Positions 1-5,784 are shown, numbered from the stretch's first letter. The stretch is DNA of 5,784 bases from a virus (IMGVR_UViG_2740892439_000005); one strand, 5' to 3'. The notes: generated from the sequence alone by a model not told the origin. Translations and numbers: made by a program.

Positions 1-376
1 AGGTGGTTTCCACCAGTGCCTGCACGCCGAAGGTAAAACGCAGTCGGTCAATGTTTGCCGACGTAATGGTGCGGGTGATCGGCGTGTCATATTTCACTTC
101 CGTACCCAGCACCGTCTCGGAGCCGGAGGATTCAAATCCCTCCGGCGGTGTCTGCTCCTGCTCACCGGCCCGGAACACCACCGTGACGCCGGATATATTG
201 GTATTCCCCTCACTGTCCAGCACCGGCGTACTGTTCAGCAGCACGCTTTTTAATCCATCCACCGGACCTTCAACCGGCCCTTCGCTGATGGCATCGATCA
301 CACTCAGCAGCTGCGTGGACTTCAGGTTGTCCTTCGCTTCGCGCGGGGTATGCCCCTTACTGCTGCCTTTACCCAT
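1..376 (-). CDS. J: Tail tip host-specificity / central tail fibre protein J, N-terminal 125 codons only (3' part of the gene lies beyond the left edge)
   Basis: Absent from the ORF track because no stop lies within the window. Manual minus-strand translation from ATG (plus 374-376) reads MGKGSSKGHTPREAKDNLKSTQLLSVIDAISEGPVEGPVDGLKSVLLNSTPVLDSEGNTNISGVTVVFRAGEQEQTPPEGFESSGSETVLGTEVKYDTPITRTITSANIDRLRFTFGVQALVETT with no stop down to position 2. This matches my recollection of the lambda gpJ N-terminus almost residue for residue. GGAG lies ~11 nt upstream of the ATG. Confidence 0.9.
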   Translation of the reverse strand, partial: MGKGSSKGHTPREAKDNLKSTQLLSVIDAISEGPVEGPVDGLKSVLLNSTPVLDSEGNTNISGVTVVFRAGEQEQTPPEGFESSGSETVLGTEVKYDTPITRTITSANIDRLRFTFGVQALVETT

Positions 377-393
377 TCGTCATGCTCCATTAA

Positions 394-418
394 CGATAAA
401 ACCGCCCGGAGGCGGTTT
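394..418 (-). terminator. Candidate stem-loop (8-bp stem AAACCGCC/GGCGGTTT, 4-nt loop) followed by T-rich tract in the I-J intergenic spacer; possible weak intrinsic terminator, attenuator or RNA processing/stability element
   Basis: Minus-strand RNA reads GAAACCGCC-UCCG-GGCGGUUU-UAUCGUU. The palindrome is perfect and sits in the only sizeable non-coding gap in the window (60 nt between I stop 437-439 and J start 374-376). The GC core is only 5 bp and the U-tract is short, so terminator function is uncertain. Confidence 0.25.
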
Positions 419-436
419 CACATAAAACATTTTGCA

Positions 437-1084
437 TCAGCGACCAATCACCACAACCTGACCACCATCCCCTTCGTCTGCCGTGCTGATCTCCTGAGAA
501 ACCACGCGTGACCCCACGCGCATTTCACCGTACAGAACCGGCAGAACATTGCCCTGGGCAACCATGTTATCCAGTGAGGAGAAATAGGTGTTCTGCTTAC
601 CGTTATCCGTTGTCTGTGTACGGGGAGTTCTGGCTTTCGGTGCCAGCATCTGCGCCACACCGCCAAGGATCATACTGGCCCCCGCAGCATACATGCCCGA
701 TAAAGCCGCAGCTCCCAGCCAGCCTGCAGGGTTCCACCACGCCACTGCAATCAGCGCCGCACCCAGCACCGCCTGAAACACACCGCCACTTTTTGCTCCC
801 GCAAGACGCGGCACGATGTGGATCACGGCACCATTTTTCAGCGGCTCATTAAGACGGGCTGATAATTCGTTTTCGCCTGCATCACGCCCGGCAATCCGTA
901 CCTGATACCAGCCGTCGCTCAGTTTCTGACGAAACGCCGGGATCTGCATGGCCAGCGCCCGGATGGCTTCGGACCCCGTTTTCACTCGAAGGTCGATGCG
1001 GCGGCCAAATCGTTGCAAATCCCCGTAAAGGCAGATGCGTGCCATGCCCGGTGACGCCAGAGGGAGTGTGTGCGTCGCTGCCAT
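437..1084 (-). CDS. I: Tail assembly protein I (lambda gpI homologue): N-terminal ubiquitin-like domain, diglycine at residues 100-101, hydrophobic C-terminal domain
   Basis: ORF-track 215-aa protein MAATHTLPLASPGMARICLYGDLQRFGRRIDLRVKTG...GQVVVIGR matches lambda gpI from memory at both N- and C-termini, with a divergent Gly/Ala-rich hydrophobic middle. ATG start at 1082-1084 with GAGG ~12 nt upstream; TGA stop at 437-439. Confidence 0.92.
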   Translation of the reverse strand: MAATHTLPLASPGMARICLYGDLQRFGRRIDLRVKTGSEAIRALAMQIPAFRQKLSDGWYQVRIAGRDAGENELSARLNEPLKNGAVIHIVPRLAGAKSGGVFQAVLGAALIAVAWWNPAGWLGAAALSGMYAAGASMILGGVAQMLAPKARTPRTQTTDNGKQNTYFSSLDNMVAQGNVLPVLYGEMRVGSRVVSQEISTADEGDGGQVVVIGR

Positions 1085-1725
1085 TTGTCGGTGTACCTCT
1101 CTCGTTTGCTCAGTTGTTCAGGAATATGGTGCAGCAGCTCGCCGTCACCACAGTAAATGGCGGCATGATTCGGCACCGATGAACCAAAGCAGCACAGCAG
1201 CACATCGCCCGGTTGTGCTGATGACAACGGCACCTGATACAGCCCTGTGGCCTCCAGATTATCCAGATAGAGATTCTGACCGTGACGCCACCAGTCATCC
1301 CCGCGATGAAAATCCGGCATCTCAATCCCCGCCAGATGATAAGCATCCCGGAACAGCGTGTAACAGTCCGTCACCCCGTGCTCAAAGCGCCGCCCGGTGA
1401 GATGCGGCACACAGCGGAACTTATGAATCGCCCCCCGGCAGACCAGCCACCACGGCAAATCACTCTGCACCTGCAGCCGCCGGTCAGCCTCACTCAGCCA
1501 GGGCAGACCACCGGGGTGGCTGTGGACCAGCGCCACAATCTCACCCTGCATTTCTGCCTGCAGCCAGTCCTCCGGAACCATCCGGAAATAATCCTCCGGC
1601 TCACCGGAAATATTCACGCCGGGAAAATATCTTTCCCCCTCCGGCGCTCTCACCACGAAGCCGCACGACTCCGCTGGCGCACATCGCCGGGCGTGCGCCA
1701 GAATCGCTGATTCTGTCTCTGTCAT
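982..1725 (-). CDS. K: Tail tip assembly protein K (lambda gpK homologue): N-terminal MPN/JAMM (JAB) domain plus C-terminal NlpC/P60-like Cys-His peptidase domain; long 247-aa form (canonical 199-aa lambda form would start at ATG 1579-1581)
   Basis: 247-aa translation MTETESAILAHARRCAPAESCGFVV...HSHPGGLPWLSEAD...GVTDCYTLFRDAYH... matches lambda gpK from memory. JAMM motif H68-x-H70-x7-S78-x2-D81 is present, with a candidate upstream Glu in the E-x-C-G context (AESCGFVV, E19). The frame is open from an ATG 5 nt after the L stop. An internal ATG (Met49) has a GGAGGA Shine-Dalgarno ~10 nt upstream, so the start is ambiguous. Confidence 0.88.
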   Translation of the reverse strand: MTETESAILAHARRCAPAESCGFVVRAPEGERYFPGVNISGEPEDYFRMVPEDWLQAEMQGEIVALVHSHPGGLPWLSEADRRLQVQSDLPWWLVCRGAIHKFRCVPHLTGRRFEHGVTDCYTLFRDAYHLAGIEMPDFHRGDDWWRHGQNLYLDNLEATGLYQVPLSSAQPGDVLLCCFGSSVPNHAAIYCGDGELLHHIPEQLSKRERYTDKWQRRTHSLWRHRAWHASAFTGICNDLAAASTFE

Positions 1726-1730
1726 GGGAT

Positions 1731-2429
1731 TTACTGCGAAAGTTTGTTAATGGAAAGGTAACCGCCAAAGTTGCCGACGTTATTGCGAAACTTACAGCCG
1801 CTCAGGCATTTGCTGCATTTATCCTTCGTGATATCGGACGTCGGCTGGTCATATTCATCCGCGACAGCCGGACCGTGATAACCGCACTCATCACCGCGAT
1901 AGGTCCAGGTGCAGGTGTTGGCCAGCATGATACGTCCCGGAAAAACAGCGCCATCCGTTTCCGTCGGCGTGGACAGTACAAAGGAGGCACTCACCGCGCT
2001 CAGTTCGCTGCACTGCTCGATGCGCCAGCGGCTGATCACCTCCTGCTCCGGATCGGCGTCACTGTTTCCGTTGACGAAGTTCACCGCATCCAGAAAACGG
2101 GCGTAAACCTTACGCCGGACCACCGTTCCGCCGACCAGACTCTGCAGATCTTCCGCCATCCCGGTGACCATACCGTACAGGTTAGAAACCGTCAGCGTGG
2201 GGCGCGTACTGGTGCCTTTGCCATTCAGTTCAAAACCACTCCCCTGAATGGGATACGGCTGATACTGTCGCCCCTGCCAGGTGACCGGCTCACCTTTTTC
2301 GTTCTGCTCATTACAGAAAAAATAACGTTCTCCACCGACCTCTGTCAGGTCGATTTCCCAGAGCACCACGCTGGCCGACTGCTCCGCACGGGTGCATTCA
2401 TTCAGTGTTTCCTGTTGTATGTCCTGCAT
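1731..2429 (-). CDS. L: Tail tip assembly protein L (lambda gpL homologue), 232 aa, with C-terminal cysteine cluster
   Basis: 232-aa translation MQDIQQETLNECTRAEQSASVVLWEIDLTEVGGERYFFCNEQNEKGEPVTWQGRQYQPYPIQGSGFELNGKG... is near-identical, from memory, to lambda gpL and has the same length. C-terminal cysteines occur in TCTWTYRGDECGY and KDKCSKCLSGCKF. ATG at 2427-2429 overlaps the M stop by 1 nt. Confidence 0.93.
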   Translation of the reverse strand: MQDIQQETLNECTRAEQSASVVLWEIDLTEVGGERYFFCNEQNEKGEPVTWQGRQYQPYPIQGSGFELNGKGTSTRPTLTVSNLYGMVTGMAEDLQSLVGGTVVRRKVYARFLDAVNFVNGNSDADPEQEVISRWRIEQCSELSAVSASFVLSTPTETDGAVFPGRIMLANTCTWTYRGDECGYHGPAVADEYDQPTSDITKDKCSKCLSGCKFRNNVGNFGGYLSINKLSQ

Positions 2430-2767
2430 CAGATCACCACTTCGTCAAACTGACACGAAAAATCGGTATAGGTGATATGTTCTGTCGCTGACCACGTTCG
2501 ACACACCACTCTGATTTTTCTGTTAATACCCGGCGGGCGCCAAAAAAAAGATTTATAGCCTTCATGCCGGGCTAAAAATTTTTCAAATGAATCACGTTCA
2601 TTCGCCTCAACTTTGAAATCACAGGTGAAAACGCGCAGAGAATGATTAAGTCCATTTGGACTTCGTTGCTCATAACCATCGCCAAATCTTACAGTTTTTA
2701 TCGATGGTTTATTTTCTGTTTTCATTCCATCCTCTGGTAACCAGTGAAATTCTTCCGTATTAGCCAC
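2429..2767 (-). CDS. M: Minor tail protein M (lambda gpM family), 112 aa, GTG start
   Basis: Translation contains VRFGDGYEQR...GLN...KSFFWRPP...FDEVVI, which aligns with lambda gpM (109 aa; RFGDGYSQR...KSFLWTPP...FEQVVN as I recall) at roughly 45-50 percent identity. Position between the tape measure gene and L. GTG start at 2765-2767 is preceded by GGGGGA; an alternative ATG lies at codon 15. Confidence 0.85.
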   Translation of the reverse strand: MANTEEFHWLPEDGMKTENKPSIKTVRFGDGYEQRSPNGLNHSLRVFTCDFKVEANERDSFEKFLARHEGYKSFFWRPPGINRKIRVVCRTWSATEHITYTDFSCQFDEVVI

Positions 2768-3033
2768 TTAACATTCCCCCATCACGTCGCATATTTAACA
2801 GATTGCCCTGCACCCGCTGATCAACCATCCCCATAAGTGCTTTTATTGCCTGAGGCCAATCTCTCCATTCTGGCCGTCATTTTGAATAGTGATTTGGTAT
2901 ACAGGGGCATAGGTAATATCTCCGCCTCCATTACCACTTTTACTATTAATAGCTCTGACACCAAGAGAACCATCGGAAGTTCGTGTTAATGGCATAATGG
3001 CTTCCGGACCAGCCTCACCAAAAACACCAGCCC
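2760..3033 (-). pseudogene. H: Frameshifted 3' end of the tape measure gene: the conserved C-terminal ~90 codons are split across two other reading frames (shifts near plus 3030-3034 and 2853-2857); true stop TAA at 2760-2762
   Basis: From the break after ...PQFFAFAKG, the -1 frame reads [58 protein letters not shown] and stops at 2843-2845. A further -1 frame reads PQAIKALMGMVDQRVQGNLLNMRRDGGMLSG to TAA 2760-2762, overlapping the GTG of M. The joined sequence resembles the lambda gpH C-terminus as I recall it (...NDGTNGQIGPAALKAVYDM...QMRDGGLFSGGGR). Each break is explained by loss of one base in a homopolymer (plus ccc 3031-3033; gg 2854-2855). Confidence 0.7.
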
Positions 3034-5784
3034 TTTTGCAAAAGCAAAAAATTGCGGGGAATCATAAATACCGTTCGAATACATGTTCAATGACGGAGAC
3101 TCATAAACACCGCCCTTTGCATTCGGAATAAATTTACTAATAGCACTCCCGATAGTTCCTAAAATCCCCCCAGAAGAACTGTTACTAATGCTGTCGAAAA
3201 TCCCAGTAATTGAAGCCTTTAATGCTATTCGACTAAGATCCGAAATCACGGAAGTAGCGAAAGAACGAAAATTTGCCTTGCCTGTCGTGACAAAATCACC
3301 CAGCGCATCGGTCATTCCATCAAACATCTGAGTCGTGGTTGATTTTATCTGCTCACTGATATCCTTAGTGTCATCCAGCCAGTTATTGAATCCCTGGGAG
3401 GCACCACTAACCCAGTCTCCTGCCTGAATATCGAGCTGCTCGTTTTTCTGTCTGACAATGTCTTTTTCTCGTTCCAGAGCATCATTCAGAGCCTGCATTT
3501 TCTCCTGAAAAACATGATTTGACATCCCACGGGATTTATCTGCATAGTCACGTTCAAGTTGCAGACGCTGATTGTTATATTCACGTTCAATCCGCAGTAA
3601 TTCCTGCTGGCGTTGCTGATTTTTATCGCCAACCCCATAACCAGCAATCTGAATATCATACCCCTGTTGACGATTATCAATCGAAGCCTGCAATGAATCA
3701 CGCCATGCAGCTATTTCGGCGGATTCCTTGATTAGCCTGTTATTTTTTTCAATCGCAACATTTTTCTCCATCAACGCGGTTATTTCTTCCCGGTGTAAGA
3801 GAAGCGATTTCTGATCCTGGGTTAATTTCGATGACGGTCGTGACTCCAGGTTGGCAATCTGCTGACGCCACTTAACCAGTTCCTGTTCAGTGGAACTTAA
3901 TTTAACGGTTAATTCAGTTTGTGAACTTAGTAACGCATTCTGTTGATTCAGATGATCAATCATTCGTTGGGCAGCATCATCCGAATAACCTTTCGCCTTT
4001 GGTTGCTTTGGATCTTTATAACGCTCATTTATTTGAGCGATAAGATTATTATATTCTTCCTTTGAATACTGACTCTTTAGCTTTTCCAGTTTTGCAAGTT
4101 CACTAGCTCTCTGCTGCTCCCGGGTCTGATATTGTTTTGAAAAGGCATCTGCTCTCTGTCTGAGTTCAATTCCTTCCTGTTGTCGCTTGTTGTAATCGTT
4201 TATTGATGAATTTAGTACGTCCTGAGCAATTTTTTCTGCTTGAAGTGCGCCCAATTGCTGCTTTAATCGTGCCAGCCTTTTATTTTGAGCTCCGCCATCT
4301 CCAATGCCACCTAACCCGAAAACTCCGGGTCGGGTATTTTTTTCTATTTCATCAATTTGACGGAGAACATCTGAGATTTTTTGATCAAGGGAGGCCTCAC
4401 GGCCAATATCCAGCATGGAATCCCATGCCCATTTTGCGGAGTCTGCGACAGCTTTCCATGCAGTCTCAAGATAACCAAGATTTTCTTTAATCTGGTTGGT
4501 GCGCTGGATCATTGAGGATGAGTATGCTTCTGTCGCAATGCGGGCGGCCTCCTGCTGGTTCCCTTCATCCTGTAGCGCCTTAATCTGGTTATAAGTCGCA
4601 ATTGTCAGAAAATGGTACTGATCATTAAGTTTTGATATGGCACTGACAGGATCCTTTGCAATTTCACTGAAGTCATTAACCAGTTGTTCGGTTGATATTC
4701 CTGTTACTTCGCTCGTTTTTACTATCGCTGTCGTCACTTGCTCCAGCGAACTGCTCGCTACCTTTCCCGAACGCACAAGCTGGTTTAATACTGCCGCCGC
4801 AGCGCCAGTTGTCGAATCAGCCGCATTCCCGGCACGTTGAGCTATATCGGCCAATTGCCCGCTGGTTGTCCCCAACTGATTTCCGGTAAGAATAAGAGAT
4901 TTATTAAATTCGTCCTGCTCCTGAGAGCCTTTATAGTAAGCCAGCCCTAAGACGCCAACGGCTGCTGCGGCCAGGGTAAAAGGATTAATTAATCCCAGCA
5001 CATAAGAACCAACACCTTTGATCGCCGGGCCAATCCCACCGAACATATCTTTTAGCTGGCCGCCCTGCTGCATTAACACCATAAAAGGCGACTGACCAGT
5101 GGACAACCCAACAACAATATCCGTCATTTGTGCAGGCAACATGCGCATAGCAAAAGCCGTTTGTTTTGCCGACATTCCGGTTTTGCTTAATTGAGATTGA
5201 GTAACCTCAAGCTCACTCCGCATAGCACGAAGTTTTCCAGAAAGTTCCTCATACATTTCAGGAGAGAGCATCCCCTTAGCTTTTGCTTCATTGAGCTGTT
5301 TCTGTTGTTCTACCAGACGATTAAAAGCAGTTCCGACAGGGTCAAGTTGAGCAATCAGACGTTGCAAAGCAGCAACCTGTTCATCATGCGCTTTTGCTGC
5401 TTCTCGCTCTGCCTGAGCCTCTCCGGTAAGCTCTCGCCGTGTTTCCTGTATTTTTCGGCTATAATTCTCAAACTGAGAACCATTTATTTTCCCGGATGCA
5501 AACGCAGCATTAAGTTCATCCTGCTGTTGTTCAAGATTTCTTAGCGCCGCAGCCAGAGGGTCGATCTTGTCCAGCATTCTTTGAAAGGCCTGAGCCTGCG
5601 CTTCCTGCTGGGCGGCAGCAAGTTTTCCGGCCTTCTCGGCTTCTCTCTGCGCTTGCGCAACCCCGCTCAATTCCTCTGTGGTTTCATTAAGTTTACGGAC
5701 AAGAAATTCATATTCTTCTTTATCAATAAGCCCTTTATCGAAAAATTTCTTTAATTCAGAATAGCGTCGACCGACAGTATCAAT
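2986..5784 (-). CDS. H: Tail length tape measure protein (lambda gpH homologue), 5' partial; the reading frame is open to the right window edge (the track's 894-aa ORF begins at an internal TTG), and the 3' end is prematurely terminated by a frameshift
   Basis: Minus-strand frame is open from 5784 to the stop at 2986-2988 (932 codons in the window). Contains lambda-H-like blocks: [39 protein letters not shown] (lambda: [11 protein letters not shown]...GGQSPW..LLQQGGQVKDSFGG) and [28 protein letters not shown]. Also long Gln/Glu/Lys-rich coiled-coil-like stretches and hydrophobic segments typical of tape measure proteins. The last 16 residues ([14 protein letters not shown]) look like out-of-frame translation. 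Confidence 0.9.

Follow-up and report, generated by a model that had tools for sequence, protein, structure and literature searches.

A lambda-type tail-tip cassette and a lower-GC H-M block probably meet at an old, widespread joint between tail genes M and L of a lambdoid prophage

The tail genes analysed here change in base composition and in similarity to phage lambda close to the boundary between genes M and L, which raises the question of whether the virion genes on the two sides of this boundary have separate origins. The modular theory of evolution of the lambdoid phages goes back to Susskind and Botstein, and genome mosaicism of HK97 and HK022 was reportedly described by Juhala et al. 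in 2000. A sequence-only reading of the present locus had proposed that a distal tail-tip block of lambda type is joined near the M/L overlap to a tape-measure/M block of a lower-GC lambdoid lineage. Our analysis of the whole 5,784-nt stretch (hereafter the window, to which all coordinates refer) supports this proposal and refines it in two respects: the composite is old and widespread rather than particular to this sequence, and a second, more recent homologous crossover lies 15-22 nt inside L.

All genes in the window are encoded on the minus strand, and they make up the lambda tail tip set H-M-L-K-I-J in lambda order, with all Pfam scores above the gathering cut-offs. The low-GC part contains the tape measure gene H (2760-5784; PF06791, PF24622 and PF09718, covering TMP_2, TMP_4 and Tape_meas_lam_C), which is cut by the window edge and misses 69 N-terminal codons, and the minor tail protein gene M (2429-2767; PF05939 Phage_min_tail, E = 1e-31), which has a GTG start. 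The GC-rich lambda-type cassette begins with the minor tail protein gene L (1731-2429; PF05100 Phage_tail_L, E = 2e-100), followed by gene K (982-1725), which encodes a tail tip assembly protein with JAB/MPN and NlpC/P60 domains (PF14464 Prok-JAB and PF00877 NLPC_P60), gene I for tail assembly protein I (437-1084; PF06805 Lambda_tail_I) and the first 125 codons of J for the tail tip attachment protein (1-376; Pfam FNIII-A_GpJ), the start of which was placed by alignment to Salmonella phage SPF_0923. M and L overlap by 1 nt through the stop/start TGATG at 2429, exactly as in lambda; both reading frames are intact at the joint, and each of the two proteins matches its Pfam family over its full length.

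Comparison with lambda at the protein level revealed identities of 97.8% for L, 96.0% for K and 98.4% for the first 125 residues of J against the lambda J N-terminus. The sequence-only reading had taken J, I, K and L as near-identical to lambda, which is true of these three proteins but not of I, at only 80.7% because its central patch is divergent. M had been put at about half identical to lambda; it is clearly diverged, but at 41.9% it falls somewhat lower, and its identity to any other M type tested is at most 50.5%. The tape measure had been described as strongly diverged and longer, and indeed H shares only 27.7% identity with its lambda counterpart and has 1077 aa in intact relatives compared to 853 aa in lambda. 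H is also the least conserved tail gene in all comparisons. As to K, its frame in the window encodes 247 aa, starts just after L and has the Prok-JAB domain at residues 4-98. The lambda RefSeq K (199 aa, 14276-14875) begins within this domain, which suggests that the annotated start of lambda K was placed too far downstream.

The composition step can be seen directly in the window. In a sliding profile of 200-nt windows, the G+C content is 0.50-0.64 up to ~2400 and 0.35-0.53 thereafter. A two-segment likelihood fit placed the maximum-likelihood change point at 2395 (2-lnL support interval 2287-2427), with a G+C content of 0.579 over 1-2395 versus 0.445 over 2396-5784. The log-likelihood gain is 50.5 at this point, whereas 1000 shuffles of 30-nt blocks gave 3.8 on average and never more than 11.3. 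The drop in G+C that had been claimed at the M/L boundary is therefore real, and the hand-counted samples behind that claim were essentially right. GC3 is not uniform either: it is 0.606 in I, 0.661 in K and 0.652 in L, versus 0.345 in M and 0.409 in H, and the contrast across the joint is greatest at these third codon positions. The overall GC of M is 0.410, and the GC2 of H is low, at 0.385. By contrast, GC3 is uniform across the lambda genes (H 0.663, M 0.655, L 0.661, K 0.685 and I 0.603). Because lambda H and M have a GC3 of 0.66, the step is not a general trait of tape measure or M proteins, and the discontinuity remains at synonymous sites. GC3 climbs to 0.54 within the last quarter of M; a joint inside M, as this rise might imply, is ruled out, since the nucleotide identity to lambda is at background until 2451.

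Nucleotide alignment to lambda and other lambdoid phages likewise set M and H apart from L-K-I-J. Similarity to lambda and ~250 other lambdoid phages is lost abruptly at 2433-2451: blastn against lambda aligned window 1-2451 at 92.0% and nothing further right, and blastn against mEp460_ev081 aligned window 1-2433 at 94.2%. Across the joint, the identity in 100-nt windows falls from 0.99-1.00 to 0.56-0.64, and the identity to lambda goes from 99% to background within ~40 nt. Among the matches listed, 20 of 30 phage records have matches that start precisely at M/L (query positions 3334 or 3352/3353, corresponding to window 2451 or 2433/2432), as do 23 of 60 rows sampled down the ranking of a second query. 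The joint thus falls inside the interval 2400-2800 proposed earlier, but at its extreme left, at 2407-2451.

Base-level alignment resolved the deep part of the joint to 2415-2451, a zone of intermediate identity to lambda that spans the last 7 codons of M, the TGATG overlap and the first 5 codons of L. In this zone 29 of 37 positions are identical to lambda, versus an aligned background of 44% in the body of M (binomial P = 2e-5). Some mosaic edges of lambdoid phages are flanked by “HR traces” of intermediate identity (De Paepe et al. 2014, PMC3945230), but the present zone does not reach the 50 nt of the windows applied there and also codes for a conserved protein end. Its conserved 22 nt encode the M C-terminus F(D/E)(E/Q)VV, the conservation of which at the protein level explains part of the intermediate identity. 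Recombination inside the conserved M end could have produced the original joint, as could an illegitimate event on which selection then acted; with the motif encoded in the same 22 nt, the zone is compatible with a homologous as well as an illegitimate origin. We found no Chi octamer anywhere in the window, and no direct or inverted repeats of at least 12 nt in 2300-2900; therefore nothing points to a specialised recombination site, for which neither Chi nor repeats gave a recognisable signal.

Searches with the low-GC side led to a distinct family of prophages. At the nucleotide level, M is 100% identical to that of the E. coli ET745 prophage and of SPF_0923, and 0.99-1.00 identical to that of vB_EcoS-606R9. 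In relatives the low-GC block extends upstream through the tail tube and P22-type capsid genes. In SPF_0923, the G+C content is low, at 0.41-0.51, through ~9 kb upstream including capsid, tail tube and H-M, and rises sharply to 0.57-0.64 through L, K, I and J. The best full-length match to the window among complete E. coli genomes is the ET745 prophage, at 98.0%, which encodes a P22-type major capsid protein and DUF4055 portal-region genes, in addition to the Rac/DLP12-like genes trkG, ynaK, ydaY, rusA, quuD and essD. This prophage (NZ_CP100918.1 2813955-2859738) adjoins the icd pseudogene and e14-neighbourhood genes; trkG, ynaK and ydaY are its Rac-like genes, rusA, quuD, essD and rrrD its DLP12-like genes, and its K and lom are annotated as frameshifted. 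As for vB_EcoS-606R9, it has no bases aligned to 1700-1718 (the K start), is only 74% identical at 301-400 (the J start) and has H annotated as two pieces, features that suggest a further copy of this prophage type, degraded or containing errors. Outside the family, the H-M query (2452-5784) matched a Klebsiella phage at 70.5% over 38%, and Stx phages at ~68% over the H C-terminus and M. Distant blastn found no unmosaicked ancestor with a low-GC M and its own low-GC L, and reached only lineages with M at most 50% identical, namely the Stx phages and 606R7.

The L-K-I-J cassette itself is attached to other H-M blocks elsewhere. GC3 of its genes is 0.53-0.73 in every lineage examined, and the different H-M lineages that the cassette adjoins number at least four or five and range in GC3 between 0.34 and 0.68. 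These include lambda (H and M both 0.66), Stx2a_1447 (uniformly high, with H 0.62 and M 0.68), mEp460 (H 0.54, M 0.56), 606R7 (intermediate, with H 0.50 and M 0.47) and the Rac-type lineage of the window (H 0.39-0.41, M 0.34). Lambda and mEp460 also break at M/L when compared to each other, with 59% identity in M and 85-96% in L. It is conceivable, though on balance unlikely, that the M end, the TGATG overlap and the L start serve as a preferred and selectively maintained “linker”, which would channel crossovers and swap the host-range cassette L-K-I-J among unrelated virion modules. If so, breakpoints would cluster at M/L more than at other tail gene boundaries, and the ring-to-hub interface of gpM and gpL would accept M proteins that share only 40-50% identity.

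The composite was found to be common in the E. coli population. A 601-nt query spanning the joint (2130-2730), counted at a coverage of at least 80% in 5426 complete E. coli genomes, is present in ~717 of them (~13%), and seven complete genomes, from pig, human, river water and salad isolates, are 100% identical to the window over 2130-2730. The M/H C-terminus type occurs in 721 genomes with a median of one copy per genome, 669 of them at ≥99% identity, and this M type adjoins a lambda-type L in ~99% of its occurrences (717/721). The L half of the 601-nt query is found in 4203 genomes at 8499 places. Ten phage records match through H-M and the joint at 96-98%, nine of which cover at least 80% of the window. 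The records with the composite comprise SPF_0923 (ON032529) and the vB_EcoS-...R series, such as 606R9, 683R6 and 473R12 (ON4705xx-ON4706xx), which were predicted as prophages in clinical E. coli (bioRxiv 10.1101/2022.06.29.498070). Moreover, the exact 77-nt joint is present in an IMG/VR contig (L012, IMGVR_UViG_2778261638_000003, locus 10343-14398), the H-M-L background of which is only ~94% identical to the window throughout. An identical joint on such a background indicates that the junction predates the diversification of this prophage family. The exact joint pattern had no match in the GTDB species representatives. In E. coli HeN100 (NZ_CP044443.1, locus 2873-4100), an M of this type is reduced to a 75-nt remnant of its 3' end, with an IS5-like ISKpn26 immediately upstream and intact L-K-I-J following. 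This remnant is not related to the joint, being an IS5-associated prophage deletion endpoint inside M.

Further analysis of mismatch lists and identity matrices revealed a younger exchange next to the joint. A lambda-identical patch of ~520 nt at the 5' end of L (1891-2414) is 99.2% identical to lambda, with 4 mismatches. At 2201-2400 the window is only 81-90% identical to ET745, SPF_0923 and 606R9, which carry the same H-M block, whereas the same L 5' patch is also found in 13P484A, w264 and S1-INA-02-B. Differences from ET745 end at 2406, and the first one from lambda is at 2415; therefore the crossover of this homologous exchange maps to 2407-2414. The window follows lambda to the left of this interval and the ET745-type carriers to the right, with an identity over 2407-5784 of 0.99-1.00 to ET745 and 606R9 and 95-100% to SPF_0923. 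In L-K-I-J, the identity to carriers of the same H-M block is 0.81-0.98, with the minimum of 0.81-0.90 at 2201-2400. At least three L 5' alleles, mutually 85-88% identical, adjoin an M that is ≥99% identical. Overall, the GC-rich side of the joint is patchily polymorphic, whereas the AT-rich side is nearly clonal. The L 5' alleles beside this M agree with the published statistics of lambdoid mosaics, which have a median length of 400-500 bp and a median identity of ~95-96%, and in which exchange affects small fragments more frequently than entire modules (De Paepe et al. 2014, PMC3945230).

A joint that is recent and specific to this sequence, formed by a single fresh exchange that set H-M beside a lambda L, would agree with the close lambda identity of the L 5' part up to 2414 and with the ~100% identity of H-M to ET745 from 2407. 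We regard this as very unlikely, as the same-position H-M/L junction occurs with other L alleles in the ~717 genomes and also in a relative at 6% divergence. In addition, the homology that a lambda-like parent could provide right of the crossover amounts to just 37 nt at 78% identity; an ET745-like parent having its own L would be homologous over the full length. The widespread junction and this full homology indicate that the recent event is better read as an allele replacement within an existing composite. Its direction may have been either of two, with the L patch imported, or with H-M imported together with 22 nt of L.

The patches extend further into the cassette. 13P484A and w264 are ~100% identical to the window from ~1900 to 5784; leftwards the identity is 92-98%, with 63% in the middle of I, where both possess the lambda allele and the window possesses an mEp460/ET745-like allele. 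These drops point to probable further breakpoints near 1890-1900 and in I. The gene I patch at 701-900 has a nucleotide identity of 0.62-0.64 to lambda, 0.90-0.92 to mEp460 and 0.97-1.00 to ET745. The patch (~700-900) codes for the hydrophobic middle of protein I, and a breakpoint pair thus sits inside the “lambda-type” cassette.

In gene H of the window, two 1-nt homopolymer deletions were called against the intact 1077-aa SPF_0923 gene and every relative aligned, at ~3034 (GGGG to GGG) and at ~2856 (CCC to CC). The frameshift moves the end of the open frame from 2760 to 2986, which removes the conserved C-terminal portion. The best E. coli match to the H region, at 99.7%, has both extra bases; the two deletions occur in none of the aligned relatives and in no complete E. 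coli genome, and the variant at 3034 was found in none of the complete E. coli genomes, GTDB representatives or IMG/VR contigs. They represent sequencing errors or, alternatively, a prophage tail that lost its function only recently.

The deletions bear on a further alternative, in which the joint is an assembly chimera of two co-resident lambdoid prophages, mis-joined in the repeated L-K-I-J of a draft assembly. Being in no other record, they may point to low sequence quality; moreover, E. coli genomes have a median of 2 copies of the region, with 14 at most, and over the full window the best complete genome reaches 98.0%. Nevertheless, a chimera at M/L is highly improbable in view of the seven independent complete genomes that are 100% identical over 601 nt across the joint, the 717 genomes with the composite, the ~100% identity of 13P484A and w264 from ~1900 to 5784, and the exact 77-nt joint in L012. 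A chimera may lie to the left of ~1900, either near 1890-1900 or in I, but it would leave the M/L joint unaffected.

Finally, we give almost no credence to an origin without recombination, in which amino-acid composition or selection (K/E/Q-rich coiled coils) produced the GC step and fast evolution of H and M the low identity: the GC2 of H, its poor conservation and the quick evolution of tape measure proteins speak for it, but it is at synonymous third positions that G+C drops most (0.65 in L versus 0.345 in M), amino-acid composition as its cause is ruled out by the GC3 comparison with lambda, the homologous H and M of lambda, Stx2a_1447 and mEp460 have a GC3 of 0.54-0.68, the identity to lambda is lost within tens of nucleotides, and 669 genomes have an M at ≥99% identity next to an L that varies by 10-19%.

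We therefore favour, with high confidence, a history in which a lambda-type L-K-I-J cassette and a lower-GC H-M block of another lineage met at M/L, and in which this old joint was followed by patchwise overwriting through homologous recombination. The two-origin claim is borne out by four results: the GC3 of lambda, the abrupt loss of identity, the presence of the cassette on several H-M lineages and the upstream extension of the low-GC block. The source would be a lambdoid prophage of Escherichia type with virion genes of two origins. L-K-I-J would represent the lambda-type, GC-rich version common to most E. coli lambdoid prophages, whereas H, M and, in relatives, the upstream genes back to the P22-type capsid and terminase would derive from a lower-GC lineage with Rac/DLP12-like genes. 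The blocks appear to join at the M stop and L start, such that both frames and the TGATG translational coupling are kept. Judging from ~13% of complete E. coli genomes and a relative ~6% diverged, the joint is probably old and inherited; the relative ages of the events are inferred.

We propose that the homology which this prophage family shares with other E. coli lambdoids now ends at the M/L joint. L-K-I-J would find homologous partners in co-resident or infecting lambdoid phages, and segments of it a few hundred bp long would be replaced again and again, presumably by the established pathways of homologous recombination through host RecA or phage annealases of the Red-beta/RecT type (see also De Paepe et al., PMC3945230). 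H-M would lack such a partner, so that no recombination would enter M and the block would stay near-clonal; its near-clonality could also come from recent spread or vertical inheritance instead of missing recombination partners. In the latest patch, the first ~520 nt of L were probably replaced by a lambda-identical allele, with the crossover resolved at 2407-2414, among the last few identical bases before homology ends. More generally, any exchange extending as far as M/L would be resolved in this final stretch of identity.

Compared to lambda (NC_001416, 10542-18903), the window shares the gene order H-M-L-K-I-J, the 1-nt M/L overlap, a nucleotide identity of 92% over 1-2451 and proteins L, K and J' that are 96-98% identical. 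They differ in H and M, which in lambda are GC-rich (GC3 0.66) and encode proteins 28% and 42% identical to those of the window, in the length of H (853 versus 1077 aa) and in the central part of I. The closer relatives SPF_0923, vB_EcoS-606R9/683R6/473R12, ET745, 13P484A and w264 share the gene order, the M/L junction and an H-M block at 95-100% identity. However, their L-K-I-J alleles vary patchwise, at 81-98%, and their 1077-aa H is intact where not otherwise disrupted.

The joint is thus ordinary, already known lambdoid mosaicism, and the composite is already present in public genomes. Current understanding remains unchanged, since hundreds of finished E. coli genomes, besides several phage records, contain the composite. 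Nevertheless, the locus provides a clean case of how temperate phages are assembled, with a promiscuous tail-tip/host-range cassette on several unrelated head-and-tail-shaft backbones. Patchwise gene conversion that ends exactly where homology ends also makes it a worked example of how breakpoints can be mapped. A practical consequence for prophage annotation and typing is that the tail-tip genes tell little about the rest of the prophage.

Like the mosaicism known from lambdoid phages, the window switches abruptly from near-identical to unrelated sequence close to or at gene boundaries, and it contains patches of a few hundred bp with ~95-99% identity that are traded among temperate phages and defective prophages. 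Its tail genes also move as functional sub-modules, and tail genes are known to co-transfer as modules (Microb Genom 2022, PMC9836094). There is no difference in kind; the window splits the tail module between M, the distal tail ring, and L, the tip hub, and its GC3 contrast, 0.34 versus 0.65, is unusually large.
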